A stretch of 64,000 bases of DNA from NCBI GenBank assembly GCA_951406725.2, contig OX597818.1:58094001-58158000 (forward strand), read 5' to 3'. Position 1 is the stretch's first letter. The number at the start of each line of letters is the position of its first letter. The DNA comes from Octopus vulgaris (lineage: Eukaryota). Shown here one piece after another: positions 5,736-63,020 of the stretch. The notes beneath the pieces were generated by a model. It saw only the letters and a program-made list of their open reading frames with translations. It did no database searches and had not been told where the DNA came from. The position numbers and the translations under genes are program-made.

Positions 5736-6794
5736 CTACAGCAGGTTATCTTTATATTCATATTCCTAGATCTGATTCTCACCATCATGAGCGATATTTT
5801 GAGTTACGAGCATTTTAATCGCCATTAATCGCCTTCATAGTCGACCCCTCCCCCCCCCTCCAAATTTTTATCGTGATTATTCACTTCATTAATCCTCAGT
5901 TCCACCATTACAAGAATTTCATTATATTTCCGTGTATAATCGAAGATATAGTAAAATTATCAAGGGCATCGCGTACAGAGAGAGAGCGAGATAAAACATA
6001 CGAAACAGATATACACGATCGGTCACATATTTATAGATGTGACATAAATTCTTTATCGCATTTTCGCATTAAAACTTAAATTTTATTCGGAAGATATAAA
6101 TAAAATTTAATCTCTCAATAAATTATTCATTAGAAAAGAAATACTAAAATTTGATTCAGATAATAGGAAATATTTGTTTACTTTTCTGGCAAGAAAATTT
6201 ATATAAGCCATATGATTCCCAAGGTGTACACAATTAAGACAATTTTAATTATAAAATAATATATAAAATAACATTTTTTTTTCAATTTTCGAAATTAGCC
6301 ACTATATTTATCCAAACAGCATATTTTTCAATGTCAAATTTAAAAGTTTTGCCTACTGCTTAAAGGTATCTGTTTTCTTAATTGCAATATTTATAGCATT
6401 CAGAACGATATATTCGTGAAAATATAGACAATGAAAAATGTTTGTCAATTCGGTTATAAATTATAATTAAATTCCTGAATTCCAATGTATAAATATACCT
6501 TTCCTTTGTTTGATAAATGTATTGGAAATCGATCAGGATGTAGCATCGTCGCAAAGGATTTGTTTTTTAGAGAACTGACTAGATACAATTTATTAAATAA
6601 AGTATCATACTTCTCCTACCAGCCACTTTCGACAAACTGTGAGTTTCGCTGAATGTAAATATACTAACGCTGGTTAGCAAGCGTTGAGGGCATAAACAGA
6701 TGCATGGAACCTTATATCATCGTTGGAAACATGCTTCCTCAGTTGAAGATACATAATAATTAAAACATACAAGTGATGTACATACATACCTATA

Positions 6795-6837
<43 letters not shown>

Positions 6838-6853
6838 TATGTATATATATATA

Positions 6854-9266
6854 CATCTTGTACAACGTCTTCCCGGTTCGGCCAGGCCCTTCTTGACGTG
6901 GCTGAAGATTGTTTTGTATCGCAACATGTTGAATATCCGACAAGGCATCGGTCTGGGCAGCAGCCATCTATGCTAGATCTGGTATTCTCCCGCTATCCAA
7001 GATCAGTGTCAGACGTATCTGTGTGCGCCCCTCTTGCCAAGAGTGATCATGCGGTCCTGAAGTTCGTCATGCACACAACTTTTTCTACGCCCACGACTAC
7101 TTCGCTGCCACGTAGAGTCTTCTCTGCAATTAATCTTGAAATTCTAACCGAGGCTTCCGCGCTTCTGGACTGCCGATCCCTGATGACGTTGTCCTCAGTT
7201 GACGAACTATGGTCATCCCTCAAAGCATATGTAATCTGTTTGACTGACCAGGCAGTTCCCGTTGGGCTCCCCAAGAGGAAGAAACACAAGCCCTGGGTGA
7301 CGAAGAGGGTTAAACGAGAACATCGACTCAGAGATATTGCTTGGGCTGAATTCAAAAATCTGGATTCGACTGCAGCTTTTGAGGTGTACAAAACTCAACG
7401 AGACCGAGCCGTGAAAATTGAAAAGAAAGAACGCTTCAGTTACGAATACAAAATCGCGGCAAATGCCAGTAGCAATCCAAAAACCTTCTTTGCCCATGTC
7501 CAGCGGAATTCCCGCTTGAACAACCAGATTGCAACGTTGGTAGACTCAACAGGCGTATCGATTGGGGACCCTTATCAACAGAGTCAATTATTTGCCGAGG
7601 CTTTTTCAACTATTTTCAAACAAGATGATGGTCGTGAACCCCCTCCATTTGATAGATCGGTACCTCCAATGCTTCGATTGGTCATCACGCGGGACGAAGT
7701 CAAACGTGTTATTCAAGGCCTCGATGTCAACAAAGGTCACGGCCCTGACGGCATACACCCACGGGTTATCAAAGCGTTGGCTCCGGTCATCTGCGAGCCC
7801 TTAACACGACTATTCAATATGTCATTGTCGACGGGTGTTATACCTGCAGACTGGAGAACAGCGATAATCTGCCCAATTTTCAAGAAAGGAGCCGCGAAGA
7901 CCCGCTTAACTACCGACCGGTTTCCCTTACATCAATTATCAGCAAGTTGTTCGAAACCATCCTTAAGAAAAGTATGATGCTCCACTTCCTAAACACAGCC
8001 TCTATCTCTGATTCCCAACACGGCTTCGTGCCGAAGAGATCATGCTTGACCAACCTACTAGTAATGGAAGAATTGGTGACGCGCATCCTCGATGATAGTG
8101 ATGCTGTTGACATCGTTTTACTGGACTTTGCCAAAGCTTTTGACTCGGTAAACCACCGCCTATTGCTTGTCAAGCTTCAAGCATATAGTTTCCATCCGGA
8201 TATTGTACGATGGGTTGGTGCCTTCCTCTCAGATCGCTCCTTCCAAGTCCAAGTTAATGGTTCGCGGTCCGACGTCTCCAGTGCGAGCAGTGGCGTGCCT
8301 CAAGGTTCAGTTCTTGGGCCCTTGTTGTTCTTAGTCTTCATAAATGACTTGCCCGACGACCTCACGCAACACACCCTTCTATTTGCCGACGATATCAAAC
8401 TGGTCGCTCGTCGCGGTAATATAGAGGATCTTCGTCGATGCCTCCACCAAATTTGGAAGTGGTCTAACAATTGGGACCTGTGTCTGAACGTGTCAAAGTG
8501 CTGTCATCTGCCTGTCGGCTCTACTCCTGCAACTCAACTTGATTTCGAGCCGGGTCGTCTGCTGCTGGAGAGGACCGATCAGGTAAAGGACCTAGGTATC
8601 TTGGTGGATTCCTCCTTTTCGCCTTCAGCCCAGTGCGTCCATGCTGCCAACAAAGCACGCGGAATTCTGTTCTTGATTCGACGGTCATTCGGAATGCTCA
8701 CAGCAGCCATATTCCTACCACTCTATGTCACGCTGGTGAGACCCATATTGGAGTATGGGATTCAAGCCTCTTCTCCTTATCTCCTCAAAGACATACAGCA
8801 TCTCGAAAGAGTCCAGAAGCTGGCTACCCGCATGGTTCATGGTCTCAAAAATTTGTCCTACGAAGAAAGGCTGAGGACGCTCGACCTTTATTCTCTTGAA
8901 AAACGCCGCCGCCGTGGTGATCTCATTCTCGCCCACAACATCATAAGCGGAAAGTGTAACCTCTGGAAAGAGCTGTTCTTCACTGCTGCTCCAGAGCGTC
9001 GGCTGCGGGGTCATTCCGAAAAGCTCTACCTGCGACGATTTCATCCTAATCGAAGGAGAGGAGCTTTCTCCGTCCGGGTTGCGGATCCGTGGAACAAGCT
9101 GCCAGACGAGATGGTGAAGATGCCGACGACCGCTTTGTTCAAAGCCTCCCTTGACCTCAAGTGGCCTGAACTCTTTACATGAACACCACCCTGTACCTAA
9201 CTCCATGTCCCCCTACATGGCCTTGCTTTTTGCTTTTGAGCCAAATTAACTAACTAACTAACTAAC
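6854..9266 (+). mobile_element. CR1-group non-LTR retrotransposon, 5'-truncated, (TAAC)n tail
   Basis: End of APE domain (LDLVF...SDH) and RT motifs (GPDGIHPRV, QHGF, DFAKAFD, GVPQGSVLGPLLF, LFADD). C-terminal RGH...FSVRV...WNKLP is typical of CR1. Short 3'UTR, (TAAC)5 at 9247-9266, (TA)n on both sides. Confidence 0.93.
6898..9182 (+). pseudogene. CR1-group ORF2 (partial endonuclease + reverse transcriptase), one frameshift
   Basis: ORFs 6898-7977 and 7947-9182 join into IFKKG[S]REDPLNYRPVSLTSIISKLFE if one base is added at 7890/7891. Confidence 0.9.
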
Positions 9267-17423: not shown

Positions 17424-18188
17424 CGGGACGAGCGTGTCTGCATACGCGGACGACGTCACCGTCATAGTGTCTAGCCACGAGCACATCGAGCTGGTCGGCG
17501 AGACACTGAAAAACTACGAAACGGTGACAGGAGCGAAAATCAACCGGGAAAAGTCAGTGGGCTTGCGACTAGGCACCTGGAGAAGCAAGCCCATGCCGTC
17601 CACCAGCGCCTCCGTCGTGGGACGCTGGACCGACGGCCCGGTTGAGTTGCTCGGGGTCTGGTTTGGTCCGGACCTCCAAGTGGAGAAGAACTGGAACGAG
17701 ATAACGAGTAGGGTGGTCACTCTCGCCCGGCAATGGGCCGAGAGGAAACTGTCCCTAAAAGGTCGAGCGGAGGTGGCGAACACGTACATCGCGTCCGTCA
17801 TCTACTACCGCCTGACCGTCGTACCTTGTCCCGACCCTACCATCACCAAACTACAACGCATCCTCTTTCGCTTCTTGTGGAAAGGATGCGTCCCGATGGT
17901 CAGGCGATCCATTTGCTGTCAACACCCGTTAAAAGGAGGGCTGGGCATGCCGTGGTTGATGATGCGCAGACACGCGCTGAGACTGCGGCATCTCTGGCTC
18001 TATGTAGACGACGGTGAACAGGTGTGGTCGCCGTTTGTGAGGCACGCTTTCCCGCAGCTCGTCTCCATGACCGAACTGCAGTCGTGGATCAAAAAGAGGC
18101 CGAGGAAGGGCGAATGGCACCGCGAGTGTCGCGTTGCTCTCAAGCAACTCTGCCGTCCTGGGTCGACCTTAAGTGACTTCAACACAAC
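17424..18188 (+). mobile_element. Internal Tx1-family ORF2 fragment (RT C-terminal part) flanked by a 10-bp direct repeat
   Basis: Open frame VSAYADDVTVIVS...LKQLCRPGS is homologous to ~28914-29980 (without the 303-bp duplication). cattgtcgat at 17414-17423 and 18189-18198. Confidence 0.92.
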
Positions 18189-18239
18189 CATTGTCGATGT
18201 AAAAATATGACTGCATAACAAATTATGTTGTACTTCTAA

Positions 18240-19038
18240 GGCAGCGAGCTGGCAGAAACGTTAGCACGCCGGGCTAAATGCTTAGCGGTATTTCGTCTGC
18301 TGCTACGTTCTGAGTTCAATTTCCCCGAGGTCGACATTGCCTTTCATCCTTTCGGAGTCGATAAATTAAGTACCAGTTGTGCACTGGAGTCGATATAATC
18401 GACTTAATCCGTTTGCCTGTCATTGTTTGTCCCCTCTGTGTTTAGCCCCTTGTGGGTAATAAAAAAATAGGTATTTCGTCTGCCGCTACGTTCTGAGTTC
18501 AAATTCCACTGAGGTCGACTTAGCTTTTCATCCTTTCGGAGTCGATAAATTAAGTACCAGTTACTCACTGGGGTCGATATTATCGACTTTATCCATTTGT
18601 CTGTCTTTGTTTGTCCCCTCTATGTTTAGCCCCTTGTGGACAATAAAGAAATAAGAAATGTTAGCACGCCGAGCGAAATGCTTAGCGGTATTTCCTCTGT
18701 CTTTACGTTCTCAGTTCAGATTGCGCCGAGATCAAGTTTGCCTTTCAGGGTCGATGAATTAAGTACCAGTACGCAACTGGGTTCGATCTAATCGATTGAA
18801 CCCTCCACCAAAATTTCAGGCCTTATACCTGGAGTAGACAAGGATATACAAAATATTAAAGCCGTCGAGGTGGCAGAATCGTTAGCACTCCGGGCGAAAT
18901 GCTTAGCGATATTTCATCTGTCTTTACGTTCTGAGGTCGATTTTGCTTTTTATCCTTTCGAAGACGATAAATTAAGTACCTGTCGCACACTAGGTCGACC
19001 TAAATTTCGGGCCGTGTGCCTAGAGTAGAAAAGATTAT
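18240..19038 (+). mobile_element. SINE family A tandem array (4 units)
   Basis: Junctions at ~18461-18480 and ~18641-18670. Units 3-4 carry the alternative tail (aatttc.ggcc.t.t.cct.gagtaga). Confidence 0.9.
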
Positions 19039-23550: not shown

Positions 23551-23834
23551 GTGGTAAGTAGCTTGCTTACCAACCACATGGTTCCAGGTACAGTCCCACT
23601 GCTGGTACCTTGGGAAAAGTGTCTCCTACTATAGCCTCGGGCTCACCAAAGGTGGATTTGGTAGATGGAAACTGAAAGGAGCCCGTCGTATATACGTGTG
23701 TATATGTGTAGGTGTGTATGTGTTTGTGCGTCTCTGTTTGTCCCCCCCCCCCAACATCGTTTGACAAGTGATGCTGGTGTGTTTACGTCCCCGTAACATA
23801 ACAGTTCGACTAAAGTAACCGATACAATAAGCAC
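23551..23834 (+). mobile_element. SINE family C lacking its own tail, fused to a Tx1 3' end
   Basis: Follows family C to ...ccgata.aataagcac, then switches to Tx1 sequence. Confidence 0.85.
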
Positions 23835-24233
23835 CACTTGAAAAGATAGATGAGAATGGAGAGGCAGGTTTTGTCTAGAGAAAGTTTCAAAAATAGGTGG
23901 GTGAATGTAGCAAAGATGGTGCGTGCGAGTGACGAAACCACTTTGAGCATGATCCTATAAGTCGTAAAAGAGAGAGGAAACTTTGATCTCATGTGTTTAT
24001 TTCCTCTCTGCCTGAGGTTACCGTGGTCTTTTCTGTAGGCTTTTCTTCCACAGATGAACCTAATCTTGTTCGTTATTTTTTTAAAAAATCCCCTATTGAT
24101 CCCTTTTGATCACTTTTTCCGATCCCTTTTGATCGAAATTTTACATTTGTTTCCTTTTCTCTTTTTTCTTTTTCCATCTTCGAAAACAACATCTCTACAT
24201 TTGTATTTAGCCCTGTTTGGCCAATAAAGAAAG
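23829..24233 (+). mobile_element. Tx1-family 3' fragment (copy 1 of tandem cluster)
   Basis: Aligns to 30489-30924 (caccacttgaaaag...gagcatgatcct...gccctgtttggccaataaagaaag). Confidence 0.9.
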
Positions 24234-24276
24234 TTACCTACCTACATACCATCTACCTATCTATCAATCTGTTTAT

Positions 24277-24369
<93 letters not shown>

Positions 24370-24414
24370 AATCTGTTTATCTATCTATCAATCTGTTTAT
24401 CTATCAATCTGTTG

Positions 24415-24473
<59 letters not shown>
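24234..24473. repeat. Compound (TATC)n microsatellite
   Basis: (ctat)n with recurrent caatctgttt variants. Confidence 0.95.
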
Positions 24474-24695
24474 ATCTCTGACGGATGTGATGTCGTTTCA
24501 GCTCCGAAGGTAATCATTTATTTTGACTATTTAAAAGTGTATATTGACAAACATTTTGTGCTTAAAAGTTGTGTAACAACATCCACTGTAAACCTTTGAT
24601 AAATATCGACACAAAATTTTGCCCCTTGTGGGCAAAATTTAAAAGAAAAAATTCTCATAGCCTTCGTGGTTTCATTTAGCCATTTTATTTCCAAA

Positions 24696-26839
24696 ATGGC
24701 CACTGGCCACCACGAGGCTGAGTTGCAAGTCAAGCGTGACGCACAAACAGAAAAACAGGATGCTCTGTTAGCATACGCCGAACCTGACAACTCCACCACC
24801 ATCAACAGCAACAAATACAAAACAAAGGTCGCAAGGCCAAGCACCGTCAACACCATCAGTGAGTCCACCACCACCACCAACACCATGGCAGAATCTGCTA
24901 CTAAAACTGCTATCCCTACTAAAGATATCGCCACCAACAACAACACCAACATCACCATCACCGCCACCAAAGACCGTGCCGTCAATGCTACTAATACTAC
25001 CAACACCACCGCCGTCAACAAGAACGACAATAACAACAACAACAACAACAACAACAACGACGACAACAACAATTCCCTTCAACCACTGCTCACTCCATCA
25101 CCAACAAGTGAAAAAATAACGACGACAAGCAAACGAAATGTCGAAATTTGCCCTAGTGCAGGACTAAAGTACGCAGGCAATTTTCCACCCCTTCCTACTT
25201 GCACGATCGAACCAAACACACCAATTTTACAAACTGCAGCCAACAACAATAACAAAACAACAACAAATTTCGCTGAGGCGATTAAAGAAAAAAAAACAAC
25301 AATATACTTCACGGCTCAACAAATACAGGACACGAACATCAAAATAACAGAATCAGAAGGTATAGTAAAAATAAACATACCAGAAGATATTTTGGAAAAT
25401 GAAAAAAGACGAACAATCATTTATAAAATAGTTAACAAAAAAACAAAAATCCCAGAGAAGGCCAACACAAGCAAAATAGAGAAGTGCTTGAAACCCATCT
25501 GGGATCACAAAGAATATGTAACCTGGTGGAACAAATTTGCCCACATACAAGTTGTTTTCTACACCGAAGAGTTAGCTAGACATTTCTCAACGCTAACTCT
25601 TCACTCAGATGAACTCCAACTTACACCAAGCTATCGGGGACAGAAAGTGACTAAGATCACTCTAAACAATGTCCCCAAAATAGCCAATAGTCTATGGCTT
25701 GTAAAGGCCTTATGCGTAAAAATGGCGAATTATACTATTTTGGAAACCACAGTCACAGAGCATAAAAACTGGGTGGGAAAAAAAATAGATTTTCTTCTAC
25801 ATATACATCATGAAGATATAAAAAAAATACCCACCCAGATATGTGTATCAGACGACCACAAGTTATATGTGGTCGTCGATGGCAGAAGACCACGTTGCTA
25901 CATATGCGGCAGTGAGCAACACCTCAAAAAAGACTGCAAATCTGCCGCAAGAAAACAACAGCAACAACAACAGCAGCCGGAAACAAAAACAAATAAACAA
26001 GGTTTACTACCCACACCACTTTTTGCAGGAACAAACCTCACCAAACAAACAACCACACCAACTGCAGCACCAAGAACAGAAGCAGCATCACCAACAACAA
26101 CAACCAAGAATATACCAACTCCCAAACCAAGGACATCTGCCAAAAAGACACCCAGCAAAAATGAAGAAACAATTACAACTCCAAATCCCCACAAAATTGA
26201 GACCCTAAACAACACAACAATACCCACAATCACTCAAACACAAAATACCCAAACCCCACATCCAAAACCGCATACACCACAACCAAACGCTCACCAACCA
26301 ACACCAACAACAAAACCAACACAGTCGACAATAGACCCCAATACTTTCCCTCTTCCAGACTCCGATTCGTCGGATCTGTCATTAGACGAAGAAGACACGG
26401 AAGATTGGCAAATAGCCACAGGGGGGAGAAGAAAAAGGGGAAAAAAAGAAAAGAAAAAATAACAAACAAAGCGGGAAGATACACCACTCCCGAAACAAAA
26501 ACATCCACAGAAAACACACACATCAGCACAAACACACCATCATCAAACCCCCCAAAAATGTTGACAGCCATTAACACAAACAACCACGACCTAATGGAAC
26601 ACATTAGGTCAAACACTAACATTACTGAAAACGACACAAAAACAAGTAACCACCCACACACAACACCACCACAACACATTAAAATAATACACGTGACACA
26701 GAACACATACAGCACCCTGAAATCTCTTTACCCTGATGCAGTAGGGAGATTTCAAAAGTACTCATCGAAAAAACTGTATAAAAGCCTCATAGAAGAAGAC
26801 CGTGAGGTGAAAGACAAAGAACTTTCGAAAAACAAGTAA
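24696..26839 (+). CDS. Tx1 ORF1, gag-like protein with CCHC zinc knuckle (probable -1 frameshift near 26420-26460)
   Basis: ATG at 24696. CYICGSEQHLKKDC = CX2CX4HX4C, with T/N/P-rich linkers and an acidic then basic stretch. The ORF stops at 26462, but ORF 26405-26839 continues it if one base is added in a G/A homopolymer. Confidence 0.8.
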
Positions 26840-26880
26840 CCTTTTCTCTCTCCTTTTCCTTTTTGCACTTTTATCGGAAC

Positions 26881-29800
26881 ATGCTCAGAATAGGTAGTAT
26901 AAATGTACGTGGCTTGGGGTCGCCTTGGAAACAAGGCTACCTGTTAAATGACATCAAGTCACTAAATCTGAATATCATAGCCATCAGTGAGACCAGACTC
27001 CACAGCTTGCGGGCACTCCAGCACATTTTCGGTACACATTTCAACATTTATTTTTCTCCGTGTCTACCGAGAATGGGCGGAGGTGGCACCGCGGTGCTTA
27101 TCCGGAAGAGTCTGGATCTCAAAGTAAGAGCAAATTTCCTAGACCCGGAGGGTAGGCTGGTCGTCTTGGATGTCGATGGCAGCAATGAGTGTGCTTTTCG
27201 ACTGATAGCAGTTTATGCTCCGTCCTTAACAGGCCGACCAGATTTCTTTCGACGTCTAGAGTCTTTCATGGGAACGTCTCGTCCTTTACTTTTAGTGGGG
27301 GATTGGAATGCCACCCTGGACACGCATCTAGACTACGTGGGCAGAGATAGCAATAGAAGGGGATGCAAATGCCTCAAAGACCTGCTCAGACGTTTCCAAC
27401 TGTCTGACAGGTACCGACTGGACCACCCGAATGTGCCAATGTGGACATGGAGTAACCGCATCGGGTCGTCCAGATCATACTTAGATAGAGTATTCTGTAG
27501 GACAATAGATAAAAATAGTGTAGGTTGTCCACAATTTCATATAGTCAGTTACACAGATCACAAGTTTGTGACTTGTACACTTGACTTAGATAAGACACAT
27601 AGGCAGGGTCCTGGTTACTGGAAACTGAACGCGTCTTTTACAGCACGACAGGTTTACAGGGACCGGATCAGCACATTAGTTAAGAGAGCTTTGACGGGTA
27701 CCATCATCAACAACAGATGGTGGTATGCCCTAAAAAAGCGATTAAAGCAGAATCAGTCAGATACAGTAGAGCCCTAGCATTAGACCGAAATAGAATAGAG
27801 GGAGATTTAGTTAAGGTTTTAGAAGAGGCACTTAGAACTGGCATCGCGTCCAACGTACTGGCGGCGAGATTGGCCCTCGACCAACACCTCAACGCCAAAC
27901 ACGAGGGATGCGTTGTCAGAGCTAGGATGCGTGCTCTGAGGAACGAAGGAGTTGGAGCCGCCCAAGAGGCCCGAGTGGTGGAGACGCAACGAGGCAACAG
28001 AGCCACCATCAAGTCTCTTATAGATGAACAGGGGCGCGAATTGCTCGAGCCTAAAAGGATGTGTGGGGTTTTTCAACAACACTTCACCCAACTGTTTGGG
28101 ACAAGTGGTGAGTCAGAAAGCAGAGTGGACTTTAGTGCCTACCTGCATGCCTTGCCACGACTCTCAGCAAGGGAGGTGGAGTCTTGTGAAAAGCCTATCA
28201 CAGCTGCGGACGTACAGGATGCGATGGTAGGCTGCGCGAGAGACAAGTCACCAGGCTTGGATGGTCTGCCCTACGAATTTTATTTTCATATGCCAGACTT
28301 GTTTGGAGGCGTCTTGGCAGCTGTCTACTGCAACTGGCAGCAGAACGGGAGTATTCCTGCTTTTGTAAAGCGAGGAGCAGTGGCACTGATCAAGAAAGAC
28401 CCAAACAAGGGGGACGTCATAGATAATTTCAGGCCCATCACTCTGCTCAACGCAGATTTGAAAATTTTGGCCAAGGTGTTAGCCGAGAGGTTGGCGCTTG
28501 TCATCAAGAAACTAATCGACAAGGCGCAAACATGCGCCGTGCCGGGTAGAAGTATTCATGACAACCTCCATCTGATGCGCTATATCATAGACAGGGTAGT
28601 TAAAAATCCTGGCATGGGTGGGGCGCTGATCAATTTGGATCAATCAAAAGCCTTCGATAGGGTAGACCATCACTACTTGGAGGCTGTCCTCAAAGCGGCT
28701 GGTTTCGGTCCAGTTTTCCGCGGTTGGATCGCTGCCTTATACAGCGGCATCCGCTCAGTAGTTCGCGTAAATGGTCATCTATCCAGACCTTTTAACATCA
28801 TGCGTTCGGTTCATCAGGGATGCCCCCTCTCATCGCTGCTGTATGTACTGACTCTTGAGCCACTACTGCGGAAACTGGCGACGCTGAGGGGCATCCCACG
28901 AGAGCTGGGATGCGGGAGGAGCGTGTCTGCATACGCGGATGACGTCACCGTCATAGTGTCGAGCTACGAGCACATCGAGCTGGTCGGCGAGACACTGAAA
29001 GAATACGAAGCGGTAACGGGAGCAAAAATTAACCGGGAAAAGTCAGTGGGCTTGCGGCTCGGCACCTGGAGAAGCAAGCCCATGCCGTCCAACAGCGTCT
29101 CCATCGTGGGACGCTGGACGGACGGACCGGTTAAATTGCTCGGGGTCTGGTTCGGTCCGGACCTCCAAATGGAGAAGAACTGGGGCGAGATAACGACTAG
29201 GGTGGCTACTCTCACCCAGAAATGGACTGAGAGAAAGCTATCCCTAAAAGGTCGGGCGGAGGTGGCGAACGCGTACATCGCATCCGTCATCGAGTATCGT
29301 CTGACCGTCGTGCCTTGTCCCGACCCTACCATCACCAAACTGGAACGCATACTCTTCCGCTTCTTGTGGAAGGGAAACGTTCCGATGGTTAGGCGATCCA
29401 TTTGCTGCCAACACCCGCTAAATGGAGGGCTGGTTGAGTTGCTCGGGGTCTGGTTCGGTCCGGACCTCCAAATGGAGAAGAACTGGGGCGAGATAACGAC
29501 TAGGGTGGCTACTCTCACCCAGAAATGGACTGAGAGAAAGCTATCCCTAAAAGGTCGGGCGGAGGTGGCGAACGCGTACATCGCATCCGTCATCGAGTAT
29601 CGTCTGACCGTCGTGCCTTGTCCCGACCCTACCATCACCAAACTGGAACGCATACTCTTCCGCTTCTTGTGGAAGGGAAACGTTCCGATGGTTAGGCGAT
29701 CCATTTGCTGCCAACACCCGCTAAATGGAGGGCTGGGCATGCCGTGGTTGATGATGCGCAGACATGCGCTGAGACTGCGACATCTCCGGCGCTTCATAGA

Positions 29801-30620
29801 CAACGGTGAACAGGGGTGGTCGCCTTTTGTGCGGCGCGCTTTCCCGCAGCTCGTCTCCTTGGACGAACTACAGTCATGGATCAAGCAGAGACCGAGGCTA
29901 GGCGAATGGCACCGCGAGTGTCGCGTTGCTCTCAAGCAACTCTGCCGTCCGGGATCGAACTTGTGCGACTCCATCACAACAAAGGCATTCTATAGAGGAT
30001 TAGTGGAGGGGAGGTGCGACGACGAACTCGGGCAGAGTCTGGGCGTCGACGAAGAACACCTGACCCGCCTGTTCAGGACAACTTTCGGGCCGGGACCTAT
30101 GAACAATCATCAAAGATCCCTGGCCTGGCAGTGCTATCGAGAAGCATTACCTGTTCGGGATAAGCTCTACAGACACGGTTCCAGACACACTGGACCGACT
30201 TGCCCGAGATGCGGTCAGAGCGACGAAACCGTTCTGCACGCACTCGTGCAATGTCCAACCATTTCCGACCTGTGGGCTTATGCCGAACGGCTGCTGTCAC
30301 GTGTGGGACGAATCCGCCTATCGGCCGAGTCTATCGTCAGAATTGCTCCGCCCCCTTCCCTCAACCGGGAAGGCAAGGCAGTTTTCATCGTACTGGTGGC
30401 CATGGTGAAAGAATGTGTGTGGTGGACTCGAGCGAAAGGATTAGAGACAAACACTTACCTCTCTGGCCAATCGCTCATCAACTTTTTCAAGTACCACTTG
30501 AAAAGGAAGGTGAGAATGGAGAGGGAAGTTTTGTCTCGCGAAAGATTCAAAAAAAGATGGGTGAATGTTGCAAAGATGGTGCGTGCTAGTAACGAAACCA
30601 TTTTGAGCATGATCCTGTAG
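26881..30620 (+). CDS. Tx1 ORF2: APE endonuclease + reverse transcriptase + C-terminal zinc finger (one frameshift, one in-frame duplication)
   Basis: APE motifs SINVRGL, ISET, VYAP, GDWN, LDR, TDH. GPGYWKLN. RT motifs SPGLDGLP, RPITLLN, DQSKAFDRV, QGCPLS, YADD. CPRC...ETVLHALVQC. Frameshift in the A-run at 27732-27737. Confidence 0.92.
29129..29736 (+). repeat. 303-bp (101-codon) tandem duplication inside Tx1 ORF2
   Basis: 29129-29433 repeats at 29432-29736, identical by eye except the first bases (ggttaaattg vs ggttgagttg). Confidence 0.95.
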
Positions 30621-30924
30621 ATCGTAAAAAAGAAAGAAAGAGAGCATTTTTGACCTCATGTGTTTATTTCCTCCCTGACTGGGGTTCCCGTGGTCTTTTC
30701 TGTAGGCTTTTCTTCCCACGGATGAACCCAATCTTGTTATATCAATGTTTACACCATTATTTCTGTGATACACGATTTTCTTTTTTTTCCTTTTTTTTTC
30801 CTCCTCTCGATCCCTTTTGATCGCAATCATACATTTTTTTATTTTTTTCCACCCTCGAAAAGAAAAGCTCTGCATTTGTATTTGTCCCCTCTGTATTCAG
30901 CCCTGTGTGGCTAATAAAAGAAAG

Positions 30925-30952
30925 TTATCTATCTATCAATCTGTTTATCTAT

Positions 30953-30989
<37 letters not shown>

Positions 30990-30996
30990 AATCTGT

Positions 30997-31052
<56 letters not shown>

Positions 31053-31100
31053 ATATCTATCTATCTATCTATCTGTTTATCTATATATCTATGAATCTGT

Positions 31101-31150
<50 letters not shown>

Positions 31151-31176
31151 GTTTATCTATATATCTATGAATCTGT

Positions 31177-31220
<44 letters not shown>
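30925..31220. repeat. Compound (TATC)n microsatellite
   Basis: (ctat)n with caatctgttt / gaatctgttt variants. Confidence 0.95.
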
Positions 31221-32224
31221 TAGTGGAGGGGAGGTGCGACGACGAACTCGGGCAGAGTCTGGGCGTCGACGAAGAACACCTGACCCGCCTGTTCAGGACA
31301 ACTTTCGGGCCGGGACCTATGAACAATCATCAAAGATCCCTGGCCTGGCAGTGCTATCGAGAAGCATTACCTGTTCGGGATAAGCATTACCTGTTCGGCC
31401 TGTTCAGGACGACTTTCGGGCCAGGGCCCATGGACAACTTCCAGAGATCCCTGGCCTGGCAGTGCTACCGAGAAGCGCTACCCGTTCGGGATAAGCTCTA
31501 CAGACACGGCTCGAGAAACACGGGGCCGACCTGCCCGAGATGCGGTCAGAGCGACGAAACCGTTCTGCACGCACTCGTTCAGTGTCCAACAATTTCCGAC
31601 CTGTGGGCTTATGTCGAACAACTGCTGTCACGTGTGGGACGAGTCGGTTTATCAGCTGAGTCTATCGTCAATATTGTCACGCCTCCTTCCTTCAAACGGG
31701 AAGGAAGAGCTATTTTCATCATCCTTGTGGCTATGGCGAAAGAATGTATCTGGTGGACGCGTCTGAAAGGATTGGAGACAAACACTTTCCTCTCTGGTCA
31801 ATCTCTCATCAACTTCTTCAAGTACCACTTGAAAAGGAAAGTGAGAGTAGAGAGGCAAGTTTTGTCTAGCGAATGTTTTAAAAAAAGATGGGTGAATGTA
31901 GCAAGAATGGCACGTATGAATGACGAAGCCACCTTGAGCATAGTCCTATGAACCCAGAAATCGAAAACAGAGAGTTGCTTATTTGCAAAAAAAAAAAAAA
32001 GAAATATAAAATGTGACTTCATTGACCGAGGTTACCGTGGTCTTTTCCGTAGGCTTTTCTTTCCACGGGTAAACCTCACCTGTCCTCCCCTTTACACTTC
32101 ATATTGACATTTCTGTGATAACGATCCCTATTGATCAATTTTTTTTCCTCTCCCCCTTTTTTTAACCCCCTTTTTTTGTCCTCTTTCTCTCCTTTTACGA
32201 TCCCTTTTGATCGAAACTCCCCTT

Positions 32225-32258
<34 letters not shown>

Positions 32259-32328
32259 CTTCAAAAGAAAAGCTCTACCTTGTAATTTGTTCTATCTGTG
32301 TGCAGCCCTGTGTGGCTAATAAAGAAAC
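31221..32328 (+). mobile_element. Tx1-family 5'-truncated, chimeric copy (copy 3 of tandem cluster)
   Basis: 31221-31385 is identical to 30001-30165. It then restarts with a diverged subfamily encoding CPRC...H...C to the stop at 31951. 3'UTR ends cagccctgtgtggctaataaagaaac. Confidence 0.92.
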
Positions 32329-32380
32329 ATATCTATCTATCTATCTATCTATCTGTTTATCTATATATCTATCAATCTGT

Positions 32381-32445
<65 letters not shown>

Positions 32446-32452
32446 AATCTGT

Positions 32453-32486
<34 letters not shown>

Positions 32487-32568
32487 GTTTATCTATATAT
32501 CTATCAATCTGTTTATCTATCTATCTATCTATCTATCTATCTGTTTATCTATATATCTATCAATCTGT

Positions 32569-32610
<42 letters not shown>

Positions 32611-32645
32611 GTTTATCTATCTATCTATATATCTGTTTATCTATA

Positions 32646-32694
<49 letters not shown>

Positions 32695-32720
32695 GTTTAT
32701 CTATATATCTATCAATCTGT

Positions 32721-32789
<69 letters not shown>

Positions 32790-32840
32790 AATATGTTTAT
32801 CTATCTATTATCTATCAATATGTTTATCTTTCTATCTATC
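32329..32840. repeat. Compound (TATC)n microsatellite
   Basis: (ctat)n with caatctgttt and ctatatatct variants. Confidence 0.95.
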
Positions 32841-33642
32841 TCTTTAGTTATTTACATGTTCATTTTGCGTGGAGTGGCAGGATAGATGTCCAACGGTTCT
32901 CACTTTATTAAAGAAAAGTTACTAAGTACAATTATAGCAGTTTTGGAGCCATTAATGATGATGTGCCTATAATTGCTCATAATTATACAGACAGAATCTT
33001 CTCTCGAACTGCCAAGATATTGAAAACCAATCCTTACATTTAAATTCTATATAGTTATAGTTAGACATGAGATAGCTTTATACGATATATTTCTCAACAT
33101 TTGATGTAACCTTTCCATTTTCTTTTTAGACGTTTGGCATCCATTGAAATAAATACCATAAATGTATTATGCCGACTGCTGGAGAGTATTGTTCGCCTTT
33201 TAGGCAATAAAATGCTGTTAGTTGAATTCTTTTATGTGCAGGGTTCCAATATCTCATAACTTAATTTTACTTTGCAAAATTAATGTGAACAGAACCAGTC
33301 AATTAAAGAATAATTATTGAAGGTTAATGAATATGCAACTCGAAGCAATCGATTATCTTCATCCCGTATACTAAGAGTCCAGTCGCTGAGTTCAATAATA
33401 GAATAAAATAATTAAATGAACAGATTGAAAAATTCAGTACGGGTTGCAAAGAATCTGACAAGTTTAATGTTATTTTGAGAAAGTAATATTTAGTTGTGCA
33501 AACCAAATAAAATATAATCATTGTACATTAGCCGAGTACAGACATTATTTGACTTAGATGGTTTGCATAAATCACAGAACGACTAAGAGTCTCGATGCTT
33601 CAGCTTCCTCTCTCTCTGTCTCTCTGTCTCTCTCTCTGTCTC

Positions 33643-45275: not shown

Positions 45276-46010
45276 CGCAAGACGTCTTAGCCCCAGGTGG
45301 GAAGAGCCGATCTGTACATAACCAACGACAGTAAATATCTCATGCCAGTTTCTTCAGCTGCTGGGAAAACTTCCGTACTGCTAATGAATTCAGGAACATT
45401 GGTTTCTATGGGTCTACAAATATGAAAACATGTAAACATGTACGAACAGACCTGGAGTGTTTGAAACAAGCTACGAAACAGGTAGTGAACAAATATTTCA
45501 TTCTGCAGCTCGGCGTAAACTAGGCCTTGCTGGAAACTGCGAAAGAATGGAAGACTCGGATAATTGGCGTAAATTGTGAAAGGTATCTTGTTTGTGGTTG
45601 TTTAAAGAAGAAATATATTTTAGTCTCAATTTCCATCCATCTCTACTCATATTTTGTCCCTGTACAACGGGGTACTGAACAGTTCCTGGCTTCAGATAAT
45701 AGAAAATACAGGCGGATCATTTAATTATGATTTCATTCAACATATTTCCCTCCGTGTATCATGCACTTATCGCAGTGGTCTTTTAATTTTCCCAAGCCCT
45801 GTAAAAGAACTCGGAAGGTTGGGTTTTCAATCAAGCCTTGTGCGATACCCTTAAGGCCGAGAACTTTCCAGCTTTCTCTCCTATAACCTTTTGTTCCCAA
45901 TTATAGCCCTAATCTAATGACATCCCCTGTTTCTACATTATGGCACAAAAACAGAACCACGTGCAAGGTACTTCACGTTGCATCCTTTCCTCTACAGATA
46001 TATCCATGTT

Positions 46011-46227
46011 GGCGAGCTGGCAGAAAGGTGGCGAGCTGGCAGAAACGTTAGCACGCCAGGCGAAATGCGTAGCCGTATTTCGTCTGCCGTTACGTTCTGA
46101 GTTCAAATTCCGCCGAGGTCGACTTTGCCTTTCATCCTTTCTGGGTCGATAAATTAAGTACCAGTTACGCACTGGGGTCGATGTAATCGACTTAATCCGT
46201 TTTTAGCCCCTTGTGGGTAATAAAGAA
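46011..46227 (+). mobile_element. SINE family A with duplicated head and 19-bp TSD
   Basis: ggcgagctggcagaaa occurs twice. TSD acagatatatccatgttgg at 45994-46012 and 46228-46246. Confidence 0.93.
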
Positions 46228-54969: not shown

Positions 54970-55320
54970 TATCTATGTATCTATATACGTATGTATGCAT
55001 GTATCTATATACGTATGTGTGTATGCATGCATGTACCTATATACGTATGTATGTATGCATGTATCTACATACGTATGTATGTATGCATGTATCTATATAC
55101 GGATGTATGTATGCATGTATCTATATACGTATGTATGTACGTATCTATATACGTATATATGTATGCATGTATCTATATACGTATGTATGTATCTATATAC
55201 GTATGTATGTATGCATGTATCTATATACGTATGTATGTATGCATTTATCTATATACGTATGTATGTATGTATGTATGTATGTATGTATGTATCTATCTAT
55301 CTATCTATCTATCGATCTAT
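54970..55320. repeat. About 24-bp minisatellite (gtatgtatgcatgtatctatatac)n grading into (GTAT)n/(TATC)n
   Basis: Unit recurs about ten times with 4-bp length variants. Confidence 0.88.
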
Positions 55321-55322
55321 CT

Positions 55323-55703
55323 GCGGAGGCGCAATGGCCCAGTGGCTAGGACAGCGGCCTCGCGGTCATAGGATCACCGTTTCGATTCACAGACCGGGCG
55401 TTGTGAGTGTTTATTGAGCGAAAACACCTAATGCTCCACGAGGCTCCTGCAGGGGGTGGGTGGTGGGCCCTGCTGTACTCTCTCAACATAATTCTCTCTC
55501 ACTCGTATTTCCTGTTACTCTTGTGCCTGTATTTCGAAAGACCAGCCCTGTTACACTCTGTGTTACGCTCAATCTGCCCGAGAACTACGTTAAGGGTAAA
55601 CGTGTCTGTGGAGCACTCAGTCATTTGCACGTTAATTTCACGAGCAGGCTGTTCCGTTGTTTGGATCAACTGGAATCTTCGTCGTCGTAAGTGACCGAGG
55701 GCC
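55323..55703 (+). mobile_element. SINE family B, full length
   Basis: B head plus B tail (gaactacgttaagggta.acgtgtctgtggag...aatttcacgagcaggctgttccgttg...gtcgtcgtaa). Confidence 0.9.
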
Positions 55704-55788
55704 ACGTCGTCACCTCATCTCTCTCTCTTTCTCTCTCTCTCTCTCTATCTACCTATCACTCAGTCTACCTATCTATCTATCTACCTAC

Positions 55789-55841
<53 letters not shown>

Positions 55842-55842
55842 A

Positions 55843-55890
<48 letters not shown>

Positions 55891-56773
55891 GTCTACCTAC
55901 CTGTCTGTCTACCTATCTATCAGTCTGTCTACCTATCTATATATCTTTCTATCAATCTCTCTCCTTGTCTCGCTTCCCCCCTCTTTCTCTCCATATATAT
56001 ATATATATATATATATATGTGTATGTATAATAAAGAGTAAAACTAATTTATTTTGCTGTCTTGGAGGTTTTCTTATGATAGTGAAATAATAGATTTTAAC
56101 TGCTAATTCTAAATTTCAGTATCTGGTGAAGCAAATTTTTGCTGAACCCTGTTTCCTTTCTCCTAACTCGACGTCATATTCCTTTTCCAGCATCCCAATC
56201 TCCACTCTTCCTCTCCCCCTAAATTGTAGTCTTTCTCCCTTTCTCCCTTCCTTGTTTTCTCTCTCTCTCTCTCTCTCCCTCTCTCTCTCTGTCTTTTATC
56301 CTTCTTTCCCTATATTTCCTGCCCACACATGATCCGTGACTTATTTTCTCGTCTCTTTCCCTTTCGGCACCGGACGCTTACCTTGCAGGTCAGTTTTACC
56401 TCCTCTCTTGCTATTTATCTTATTACATCCATTCAAGTTTTCTTCCAGGCGTTACTCATCACTGTCGATTGTTTGCGCGAAACGTCGTATTTATTCTGTC
56501 TTTTCCAATCATTTTAAATTACATTTGTTTATTATCCTACGCCCACTCTTTGAAATAGTTCCGTTTGCTTGAGGCCTAAGTCTCTGCACATTTTGCCGAT
56601 ACCGCTGATATGCAAAGTTCTTAGTCTTATCATTAAGGGCATGACACTGAGTATTAACATTTCGGTTGATAACTGAAAAAGAATTAGGATCCTTCTGTAC
56701 GTGTACATTTTTTAGTATTTAATGCCATTTTCATTGTGTGTGTATATATATATATATACATCTATGTACATAT

Positions 56774-62354: not shown

Positions 62355-62386
62355 TGAAATTTTGTTAAACCGAAACAAAAGTACAA

Positions 62387-63020
62387 GGTGGCGAGCTAGC
62401 AGAAACGTTAGCACGCCGGGCGAAGTGCTTAGAGGGAATTTCGTCTGCCGCTACATTCTGAGTTCAAATTTCGCCGAGGTCGACTTTAACTTTCATCCTT
62501 TCGGGGTCGATTAAATAAGTACCAGTTACGCACTGGAGTCGATGTAATCGACTTAATCCGTTTGTCTGTCCTTGTTTGTCCTCTCTGTGTTTAGCTCCTT
62601 GTGAGTAGTAAAGAAATAGGTATTTCGTCTGTCGTTACGTTCTGATTTCAAATTGCGCCGAGGTCGACTTTGCCTCTCATCATTTCGGGGTCGATAAATT
62701 ACGTGCCAGTTACGTACTGGGGTCGATATAATCGACTTAATTCCTGTGTCTGTCCTTGTTTGTCACCACTATATTTAGCGCCTTGTGGGCAATAAGGAAA
62801 TAAGAAACGTTAGCACGCCGGGCGAAATGCTTAGCTTATTTCGTCTGCCATTACGTTCTAAGTTCAAATTCCGCCGAGGTCGACTTTGCCTTTCATCCCT
62901 TTGCCGTCGATAAATTAAGTACCAGTCACACACTGGTGTCGATGTAATCTACTTAATCTGCTTGTCTGCCCTTGTTTGTTCCCTCTGTGTTTAGCCCCTT
63001 GTGGGCAGTAAAGAAATAAG
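62387..63020 (+). mobile_element. SINE family A trimer
   Basis: Junctions at 62611-62630 and 62791-62820. Possible TSD aacaaaagtacaag (62374-62387) / aacaaaactacaag (63029-63042). Confidence 0.9.

Follow-up and report, generated by a model that had tools for sequence, protein, structure and literature searches.

Head-to-tail stacking of Tx1-clade retrotransposons within a (TATC)n context in Octopus vulgaris suggests tandem re-insertion behind existing copies

Retrotransposons of the Tx1 clade include LINEs with defined targets. These targets comprise U2, the microsatellites (TC)n, (TTC)n, (TTCC)n and (TTTC)n, and transposons (PMC4494074; this and the other articles are cited from the portions of their text that were accessible). 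In the same source, a Tx1 family qualifies as microsatellite-specific when more than 20% of its copies are flanked by the repeat, and the word GATA occurs zero times in its accessible text. Kibi, Koshi and the crocodilian Tx1 families are Tx1-clade APE-RT elements with microsatellite flanks (PMC4494074), while Keno is inserted in U2 (PMC4494074, PMC4640811). Head-to-tail arrangements of LINEs have also been described. Tandem R1 elements of Drosophila are separated by a short duplicated target; they arise by re-insertion and are multiplied through unequal exchange (PMC2718515; 10.1101/158386). HeT-A/TART, Zepp and Tx1-1_ACar, one of which is a Tx1 element, form head-to-tail stacks with intact 3' and truncated 5' ends, telomeric Zepp and Tx1-1_ACar being named in PMC10088271. 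For molluscs, the accessible parts of the repeat surveys treat L1-Tx1 as a class only (PMC13282606, PMC8967140, PMC10294476, PMC4758252), and those of PMC3747384 and PMC8869645 hold nothing specific to the Tx1 question. No (GATA)n-targeting or array-forming Tx1 family was found in the literature searched; Repbase lay outside that search and a name may exist there. Microsatellite-targeting Tx1 elements and tandem LINE arrays are each already known, and their occurrence together, with a spacer that differs from branch to branch, appears to be undescribed.

The locus presented here lies in a window of 64,000 nucleotides, the whole stretch of DNA that was analysed, from Octopus vulgaris (GCA_951406725.2, contig OX597818.1, positions 58,094,001 to 58,158,000 of the forward strand). 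All coordinates below are those of the window. Three LINE 3' ends on the plus strand, each of the form AATAAA-GAAA, are found at about 24233, 30924 and 32328, and a TATC array follows directly after each one (24251-24477, 30926-31220 and 32330-32841 in the TRF output). The first 20 or so nucleotides after copy 1 are degenerate and consist of TACC units. Sequence, TRF and alignment agree with the first-pass annotation that three ends in the same orientation run into (TATC)n and that TATC also lies upstream of copies 2 and 3. Table 1 presents an overview of the features.

Table 1. Features of the stack and of related repeats in the window.
Feature	Position	Strand	Basis
Solitary internal ORF2 fragment, related subfamily, both ends missing	17424..18188	+	repeat comparison
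SINE A example (tandem form), 3' tail like LINE 3' end	18239..18652	+	tail comparison
SINE-like repeat, cut short, fused to copy 1 5' end at a shared short word	23551..23834	+	repeat comparison
Copy 1: last 43 ORF2 codons (one stop) and 3'UTR; decayed, probably older	23829..24233	+	alignment
(TATC)n array 1 with AATCTGTT variants, degenerate at its start	24234..24473	+	TRF, alignment
Copy 2: full-length LINE; multi-copy public contigs are about 99% like it	24474..30925	+	contig comparison
Copy 2 ORF1: low-complexity N/T/Q tracts, domain common with sister-clade ORF1, CCHC zinc knuckle	24696..26839	+	Pfam, blastp
Copy 2 ORF2: APE endonuclease, RT, zf-RVT	26881..30620	+	Pfam
Copy 2 3'UTR: conserved blocks, AATAAA, no poly(A)	30621..30925	+	alignment
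(TATC)n array 2	30926..31219	+	alignment
Copy 3 chimeric head: 167 bp identical to copy 2 and a short internal repeat	31219..31398	+	repeat comparison
Copy 3: 5'-truncated, different subfamily, open frame, 3'UTR	31399..32328	+	Pfam, dS/dN vs copy 2
(TATC)n array 3, higher-order TGTT/TATA/AATCTGTT units	32329..32845	+	TRF, alignment

All ten occurrences of CAATCTGTTT in the window fall within the three stack arrays, and TGTT-type units are absent from the window's three other large TATC/GATA arrays. Outside the stack, TATC/GATA runs of at least four units make up 328 of 54,984 bases (0.6%). The left portion of array 2 resembles array 1 and its right portion resembles array 3. From the shared variant it had been proposed that insertions divided a single array; the variant is real, but a tag that is carried by the element or duplicated with it fits equally well. 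The 5' end of copy 1 adjoins the SINE-like repeat instead of TATC, which counts against tandem re-insertion. Other window copies of this repeat, which we take to be CORE-like, extend about 100 bp further and the missing remainder was not found downstream of the stack, so a clean insertion of copy 1 into the SINE was rejected. A search for a direct repeat flanking the whole stack found none. Unlike telomeric arrays, the stack is bounded on both sides by ordinary genomic DNA, as are several of the sister arrays described below, and the TRF output contains no telomeric repeat.

The element is an L1-group non-LTR retrotransposon with an N-terminal APE endonuclease, RT, a C-terminal zinc finger and a separate ORF1. 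ORF2 matches PF03372, PF00078 and PF13966 in Pfam and has no Pfam match to RNase H; its RT reaches 158 bits with human L1 ORF2p versus 75 with R2. The endonuclease aligns to that of L1 and keeps the N, E, Y, D-N, D and H positions, presumably the catalytic residues, while its hairpin loop, gapless against L1 and two residues shorter than PDB 2v0r 'LTX', is uninformative on specificity. Tx1-clade elements carry an ORF1 with a CCHC zinc knuckle. Here, the knuckle reads C-x2-C-x4-H-x4-C (PF00098, E 0.002, slightly short of the Pfam cut-off) and is kept in all three sister-clade ORF1s that match by blastp (E 6e-13 to 4e-10). Copy 2 has frame breaks at an A-rich run near 26432-26470 in ORF1 and at an A-run near 27731 in ORF2, the latter not common to all public contigs of four runs, together with a 303-bp tandem duplication in ORF2 (29129-29736). 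Among the 120 matches listed, the single one carrying an organism name is an Argonauta hians protein at 70%, in keeping with an octopod host. The idea that the 5' end bears a ribozyme or a U1/U2-type head was rejected, given Rfam matches at chance level and a fold z of +0.5. Hairpins in the 3'UTR are plausible and mostly not significant (z +0.25 to -1.7), a small CGATC hairpin reaching z -2.8. By eye only, octopod and sister elements have similar terminal hairpins, a resemblance that was given no weight.

Two trees were built: a quick one of 104 rows, among them 25 proteins and 77 of the 80 metagenome loci, and a careful RT tree of 40 chosen rows (27 loci, 12 proteins and the window). The careful tree was midpoint-rooted and included no curated Tx1L, Kibi or Koshi sequence. 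In both trees, the window groups with the proteins P0004 and P0005 (100/99), and this group joins a sister set with support of 100/100. The octopod and sister clade share a 96/90 fork with U2- and 5S-inserted elements, their branching order being unsettled, and six more distant L1-like rows fall outside. The insertion sites of these neighbours were identified from their junctions: L007 has U2 sequence at each flank, with a 16-bp duplication, and L009 and L014, presumably Mutsu-like, adjoin 5S genes. L007, L001 and L004 are labelled Keno-like, after the name in PMC4494074, and are the top RT relatives outside the clade at 42% identity. L007 resembles the octopod element in having both junctions at TATC words and an A/G-rich end after the polyadenylation signal. 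In contrast to Keno, whose U2 is a fixed gene target, the octopod element occupies a separate branch, not nested within the U2-inserted group of the careful tree, and no U2 sequence was found in the window and no Rfam match in it or in eight sister-array loci. Membership in the Tx1 clade, which the first-pass annotation had assumed, is supported by the 96/90 grouping of RT sequences. Searches of metagenome contigs yielded only distant relatives (27-45% identity), and a TATC run of at least three units occurs in 1 of 80, a count that says nothing on the octopod target. Viral contigs gave 44 matches to a protein pattern, with none confirmed, and no relative by a 3'UTR pattern, and the protein atlas gave generic RT clusters only.

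Within the stack, the 3'UTRs of the three copies are identical at 82%, 72% and 70% of aligned columns. Copies 2 and 3, compared over 183 codons, give dS 0.49, dN 0.10 and dN/dS 0.20; copy 2 and the solitary fragment give dN/dS of 0.23-0.25, and the copy 1 pairs give 0.22 and 0.39 on 43 codons only. Among the three subfamilies dS spans 0.37-0.49 and decay is unequal, copy 1 having a stop versus a copy 2 that is close to public contigs. Ratios of 0.20-0.39 combined with unequal decay point to separate insertions, as tandem re-insertion would have it, and a simple tandem duplication was rejected on the dN/dS values, in line with what had been read from the diverged 3'UTRs. Judging from these comparisons, the window copies are separate families of unequal age that diverged under purifying selection. 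The head of copy 3 is chimeric: 31219-31385 is 100% identical to 29999-30165 of copy 2 before the sequence switches to a different subfamily. The solitary fragment, at 88-89% identity, carries a 10-bp direct repeat and lacks TATC.

Turning to other copies of the element, contigs from 4 of 24 listed runs (four studies) were aligned to 24458-29430, a reference that starts with only 16 nt of TATC. Six indel rows at 24473-24478, from runs X12 and X11 (two studies), cross the junction of TATC and the 5' end. Since the aligner would presumably call an indel there only if the alignment ran into the left TATC, these rows suggest a TATC 5' flank. In X12, five contigs without one base at 24474 account for a depth of 7151 out of 9828, versus 50-93 for diverged single pieces, and in X16, contigs of 396 nt and 589 nt that each differ from copy 2 by one substitution have a depth of 262-290 versus 3-10 for diverged pieces, although contig depth is not equivalent to copy number. 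X16 shows a depth of 136 over 24473-24478 with no indel, and X1 has no coverage there. Multi-copy junctions in six variants suggest that the link with (TATC)n is not confined to the window locus; many full-length copies would have TATC at the 5' flank and joints that vary among them, the pattern expected of independent insertions into a repeated site. Against tandem re-insertion, TATC is found at 0 of 11 'before' loose ends among 24 rows listed of 2449. None of those 24 rows is at the 5' terminus and repeat-bearing contigs may be filtered out. Most of the 11 appear by eye to be diverged internal sequence, whilst one, from X16 at 28289, resembles the non-TATC flank of a diverged subfamily.

The sister clade offers a second view of stacking. 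A scan of genome contigs returned 41 loci, 37 of which are on contigs of one assembled bacterial genome (G001); since their flanks are microsatellite-rich and animal-like, these contigs are read as host DNA binned by mistake. The sister arrays consist of head-to-tail units of 6.4-6.9 kb with up to 13 same-strand 3'-end motifs per contig, as sampled from a single binned genome in which binning may favour contigs rich in the element and conceal solitary copies. On 16 contigs, 61 of 66 distinct 3' ends continue into another copy, 58 meeting its 5' end and three a truncated or rearranged copy; four others enter unique DNA and one is too short to tell. Two library units were taken from behind two sister 3' ends, and their ORFs confirm both as copies. 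The spacers that follow AATAAA are family-specific and 3-18 nt long, and neither a TATC run of at least three units nor poly(A) is present in the 37 sister loci. Each of the four terminal 3' ends begins with its own family's spacer, and contigs 8 and 18 have 12 nt of spacer in common with different flanks beyond, which shows that the tag travels with the element. At one of five outer 5' junctions the 16-bp spacer recurs as the genomic flank upstream, constituting a target-site duplication; its absence from the remaining four counts against tandem re-insertion. Since the units are mostly more than 99% alike and two of the three truncated junctions are identical, recombination appears to have amplified the arrays, and most sister junctions may be recombination copies of few events. 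Comparison of the sister-array flanks with the window produced five matches, to simple repeats only, which gives no link between the sister host and cephalopods.

A further line of evidence comes from SINE A, whose last 42-55 nt resemble the LINE 3' end. Its tail scores 57 against copy 2 (shuffle maximum 40), and 46 and 44 against the other two copies (shuffles of 44 and 39). As the first-pass annotation had cautioned, SINE A copies lie outside (TATC)n: none of 13 tails is followed by the repeat, and six run directly into another SINE piece. Direct repeats of 10-19 matching bases, counted without a chance control, flank seven of eight units at unrelated sites, two of them being exact (16 and 19 nt), which argues against a strict TATC nuclease. 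If the LINE lineage mobilises SINE A, its nuclease would not be strictly TATC-specific. The SINE A partner could instead be another related Tx1 family; 80 L1-Tx1 families are listed for O. vulgaris (PMC13282606 supplement). A similar pairing is known for SINEU, which is apparently linked to the Tx1-Mar family and shares the target of its LINE (PMC4494074), whereas SINE A shares the 3' tail and not the (TATC)n context. Thus, of the (TATC)n-specific lineage proposed earlier, the association with TATC extends beyond the locus through multi-copy TATC junctions, but strict specificity is not upheld by the non-TATC spacers of the sister clade or by the SINE sites.

Taken as a whole, the best explanation, on which our judgement is evenly balanced, is a Tx1 lineage that re-inserts in tandem behind existing copies, with the tag after AATAAA serving as both tail and target and with (TATC)n as the octopod tag. 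Its observed basis is the APE-RT-zf anatomy, the lack of poly(A), a short tag after AATAAA and stacking in both branches of the clade, along with the travelling tag, one clean duplication and the multi-copy TATC junctions. In this scheme the transcript would end 10-20 nt past AATAAA, carrying whatever tag follows. The APE would nick at or near the boundary of AATAAA and the tag, and the nicked strand would pair with the RNA tag and prime reverse transcription. The tag would be duplicated as a target-site duplication, such that every insertion leaves a fresh landing site. The octopod (TATC)n tag probably came from a founding insertion into such an array, after which new copies would insert at the tails of their predecessors and probably also at free (TATC)n arrays. 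Later slippage would lengthen the spacers, the TGTT variant included, and unequal exchange probably amplifies the long sister arrays once a dimer exists. R1 arrays provide a precedent that makes re-insertion into a duplicated target plausible; however, R1 belongs to another clade with one fixed 28S target, whereas the spacers here are family-specific and at least one moves between loci. A more specific version, in which an acquired RNA tag of 10-20 nt past AATAAA guides insertion to matching DNA and a family inherits the target of its founding site, is doubtful at present.

It is also possible, with less confidence than tandem re-insertion, that the octopod APE has its own specificity for (TATC)n/(GATA)n, in the manner of Kibi and Koshi, and that three families split one array independently. 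The locus differs from Kibi and Koshi in its octopod host, its TATC/GATA unit, the stacking of diverged families and a sister branch devoid of the microsatellite. TATC at three of three 3' ends and two of three 5' ends (zero of one for the solitary fragment), the heterogeneous multi-copy junctions in public contigs and the two-sided resemblance of array 2 all speak for such an endonuclease, as do the U2- and 5S-inserted neighbours in the tree, the Tx1 families already described in four other microsatellites (PMC4494074) and the relaxation of Utopia's U2 target to U2-like words (PMC4640811). Drift from a U2-type site is a possible route, since the 5' and 3' junctions of L007 fall at TATC and TATCT, respectively, and its duplicated site contains TATCTGTT, which is like the array variant; this likeness is short, was noticed post hoc and is without a control, and the octopod branch falls outside the U2 group. 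Stacking of the sister clade without a microsatellite and with differing spacers, and the 13 SINE tails of the same type outside (TATC)n, weigh against an endonuclease of this kind. When tandem re-insertion and a microsatellite-specific endonuclease are considered jointly, preferential insertion at (TATC)n is probable.

An unlikely reading is that (TATC)n is only an element-encoded end, a tail and perhaps a head, and that untargeted insertion was followed by stacking through RT template jumps or local recombination. Signs of template switching or repair are present in all three copies, namely the chimeric start of copy 3, the 303-bp tandem duplication within copy 2 and the join of copy 1 at microhomology; the solitary fragment and the SINEs occupy random sites, and the TGTT variant is confined to element-linked arrays. 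Such a history fits poorly with three subfamilies of the observed dS and unequal decay, and with the missing direct repeat around the whole stack. An encoded head would, moreover, be expected to give one invariant junction versus the six variants seen, and by a rough estimate from assumed numbers a random triple stack would be very unlikely if tails make up about 0.1% of the genome. Highly improbable is a mis-assembly that joined unrelated copies across long microsatellites. Exact internal repeats (303 bp, and 167 bp common to copies 2 and 3) and A-run lengths that differ from public contigs could be its traces, but the three 3' ends are diverged, the junction of TATC and the 5' end is present in independent runs and stacking recurs in the sister clade.

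Returning to tandem re-insertion, several consequences may be drawn for the family and its host. If (GATA)n is indeed a target, it would be a new target class for the Tx1 clade, and the constant trait of the lineage would be self-stacking, with a spacer that varies between families and hosts. If RNA-tag guidance were true, it would explain both the spacer-specific arrays of tens of kb and the octopod (GATA)n stacks, target choice would be changeable through the RNA 3' end and not the endonuclease, and the element would be both source and spreader of GATA microsatellites. The respective shares of the endonuclease and of pairing between the RNA tail and nicked DNA in LINE target choice thereby become testable, with a young, multi-copy octopod family as a practical substrate for such assays. 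More broadly, the stacks suggest a possible route from LINEs to satellite-like arrays and a possible link to the microsatellite richness of octopus genomes.

Head-to-tail LINE arrays make up the bulk of at least 16 animal-like contigs, up to 94 kb in size, in G001, a public assembled bacterial genome that carries a sister clade of the window element. These contigs are apparently host contamination. On several of them both ORF1 and ORF2 are open, and ORF1 variants are interleaved. Locations are collected in the table.

Coordinates of LINE and SINE features (window positions, or loci where an L-number is given)
Feature	Location
G001 array contigs	L081-L116, L121-L141
Sister-family junction	L103:6877-6910
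Internal ORF2 fragment	17424-18188
In-frame ORF2 duplication	29129-29736
Second LINE	6760-9182
SINE A dimers and trimers	2033-2735, 18239-19030, 62386-63017
SINE A head duplication	46010-46055
tRNA-like SINE	55322-55702
Flanking TATC-containing repeats	55290-55330, 55732-55962
Keno-like elements	L007:782-5947; L001, L004, L008
Mutsu-like elements	L009:5495-5623; L014:5892-6011

Among the site-specific relatives, the Keno-like element of L007 has U2 sequence on both sides with a duplication of 16 bp; the U2 head is doubled at L008, and non-U2 sequence follows the 3' end at L001. In both Mutsu-like elements the poly(A) is directly followed by 5S rRNA gene sequence, from the 3' portion of the gene.

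Within the window, an internal ORF2 fragment lacks both ends yet is flanked by a 10-bp direct repeat, suggesting that it was primed internally or captured at a break. ORF2 of the full-length copy 2 contains an in-frame tandem duplication of 303 bp, in which the first two bases of the second unit are typical of the other subfamily; the duplication could be either a real template jump or an assembly error. A second, distant LINE, which has APE and RT and two long overlapping frames, shares at best 25% identity with the Tx1 set.

SINE A also occurs in head-to-tail dimers and trimers. Its tails directly abut another SINE piece in 6 of 13 cases and two junction types recur; the multimers may represent composite masters or repeated tandem insertion. 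In one copy, 15 nt of the SINE's own head are duplicated and sit where the target duplication meets the element, resembling a template jump. Elsewhere, TATC-containing repeats on both sides of a tRNA-like SINE are without the TGTT variant of the stack's arrays.

In one sister family from G001, the spacer is partly complementary to the 5' end of the next copy (CAGAC ... GTCTG) at L103 and related junctions. Such complementarity could allow a fold across the junction, possibly serving as a processing signal for read-through RNA.
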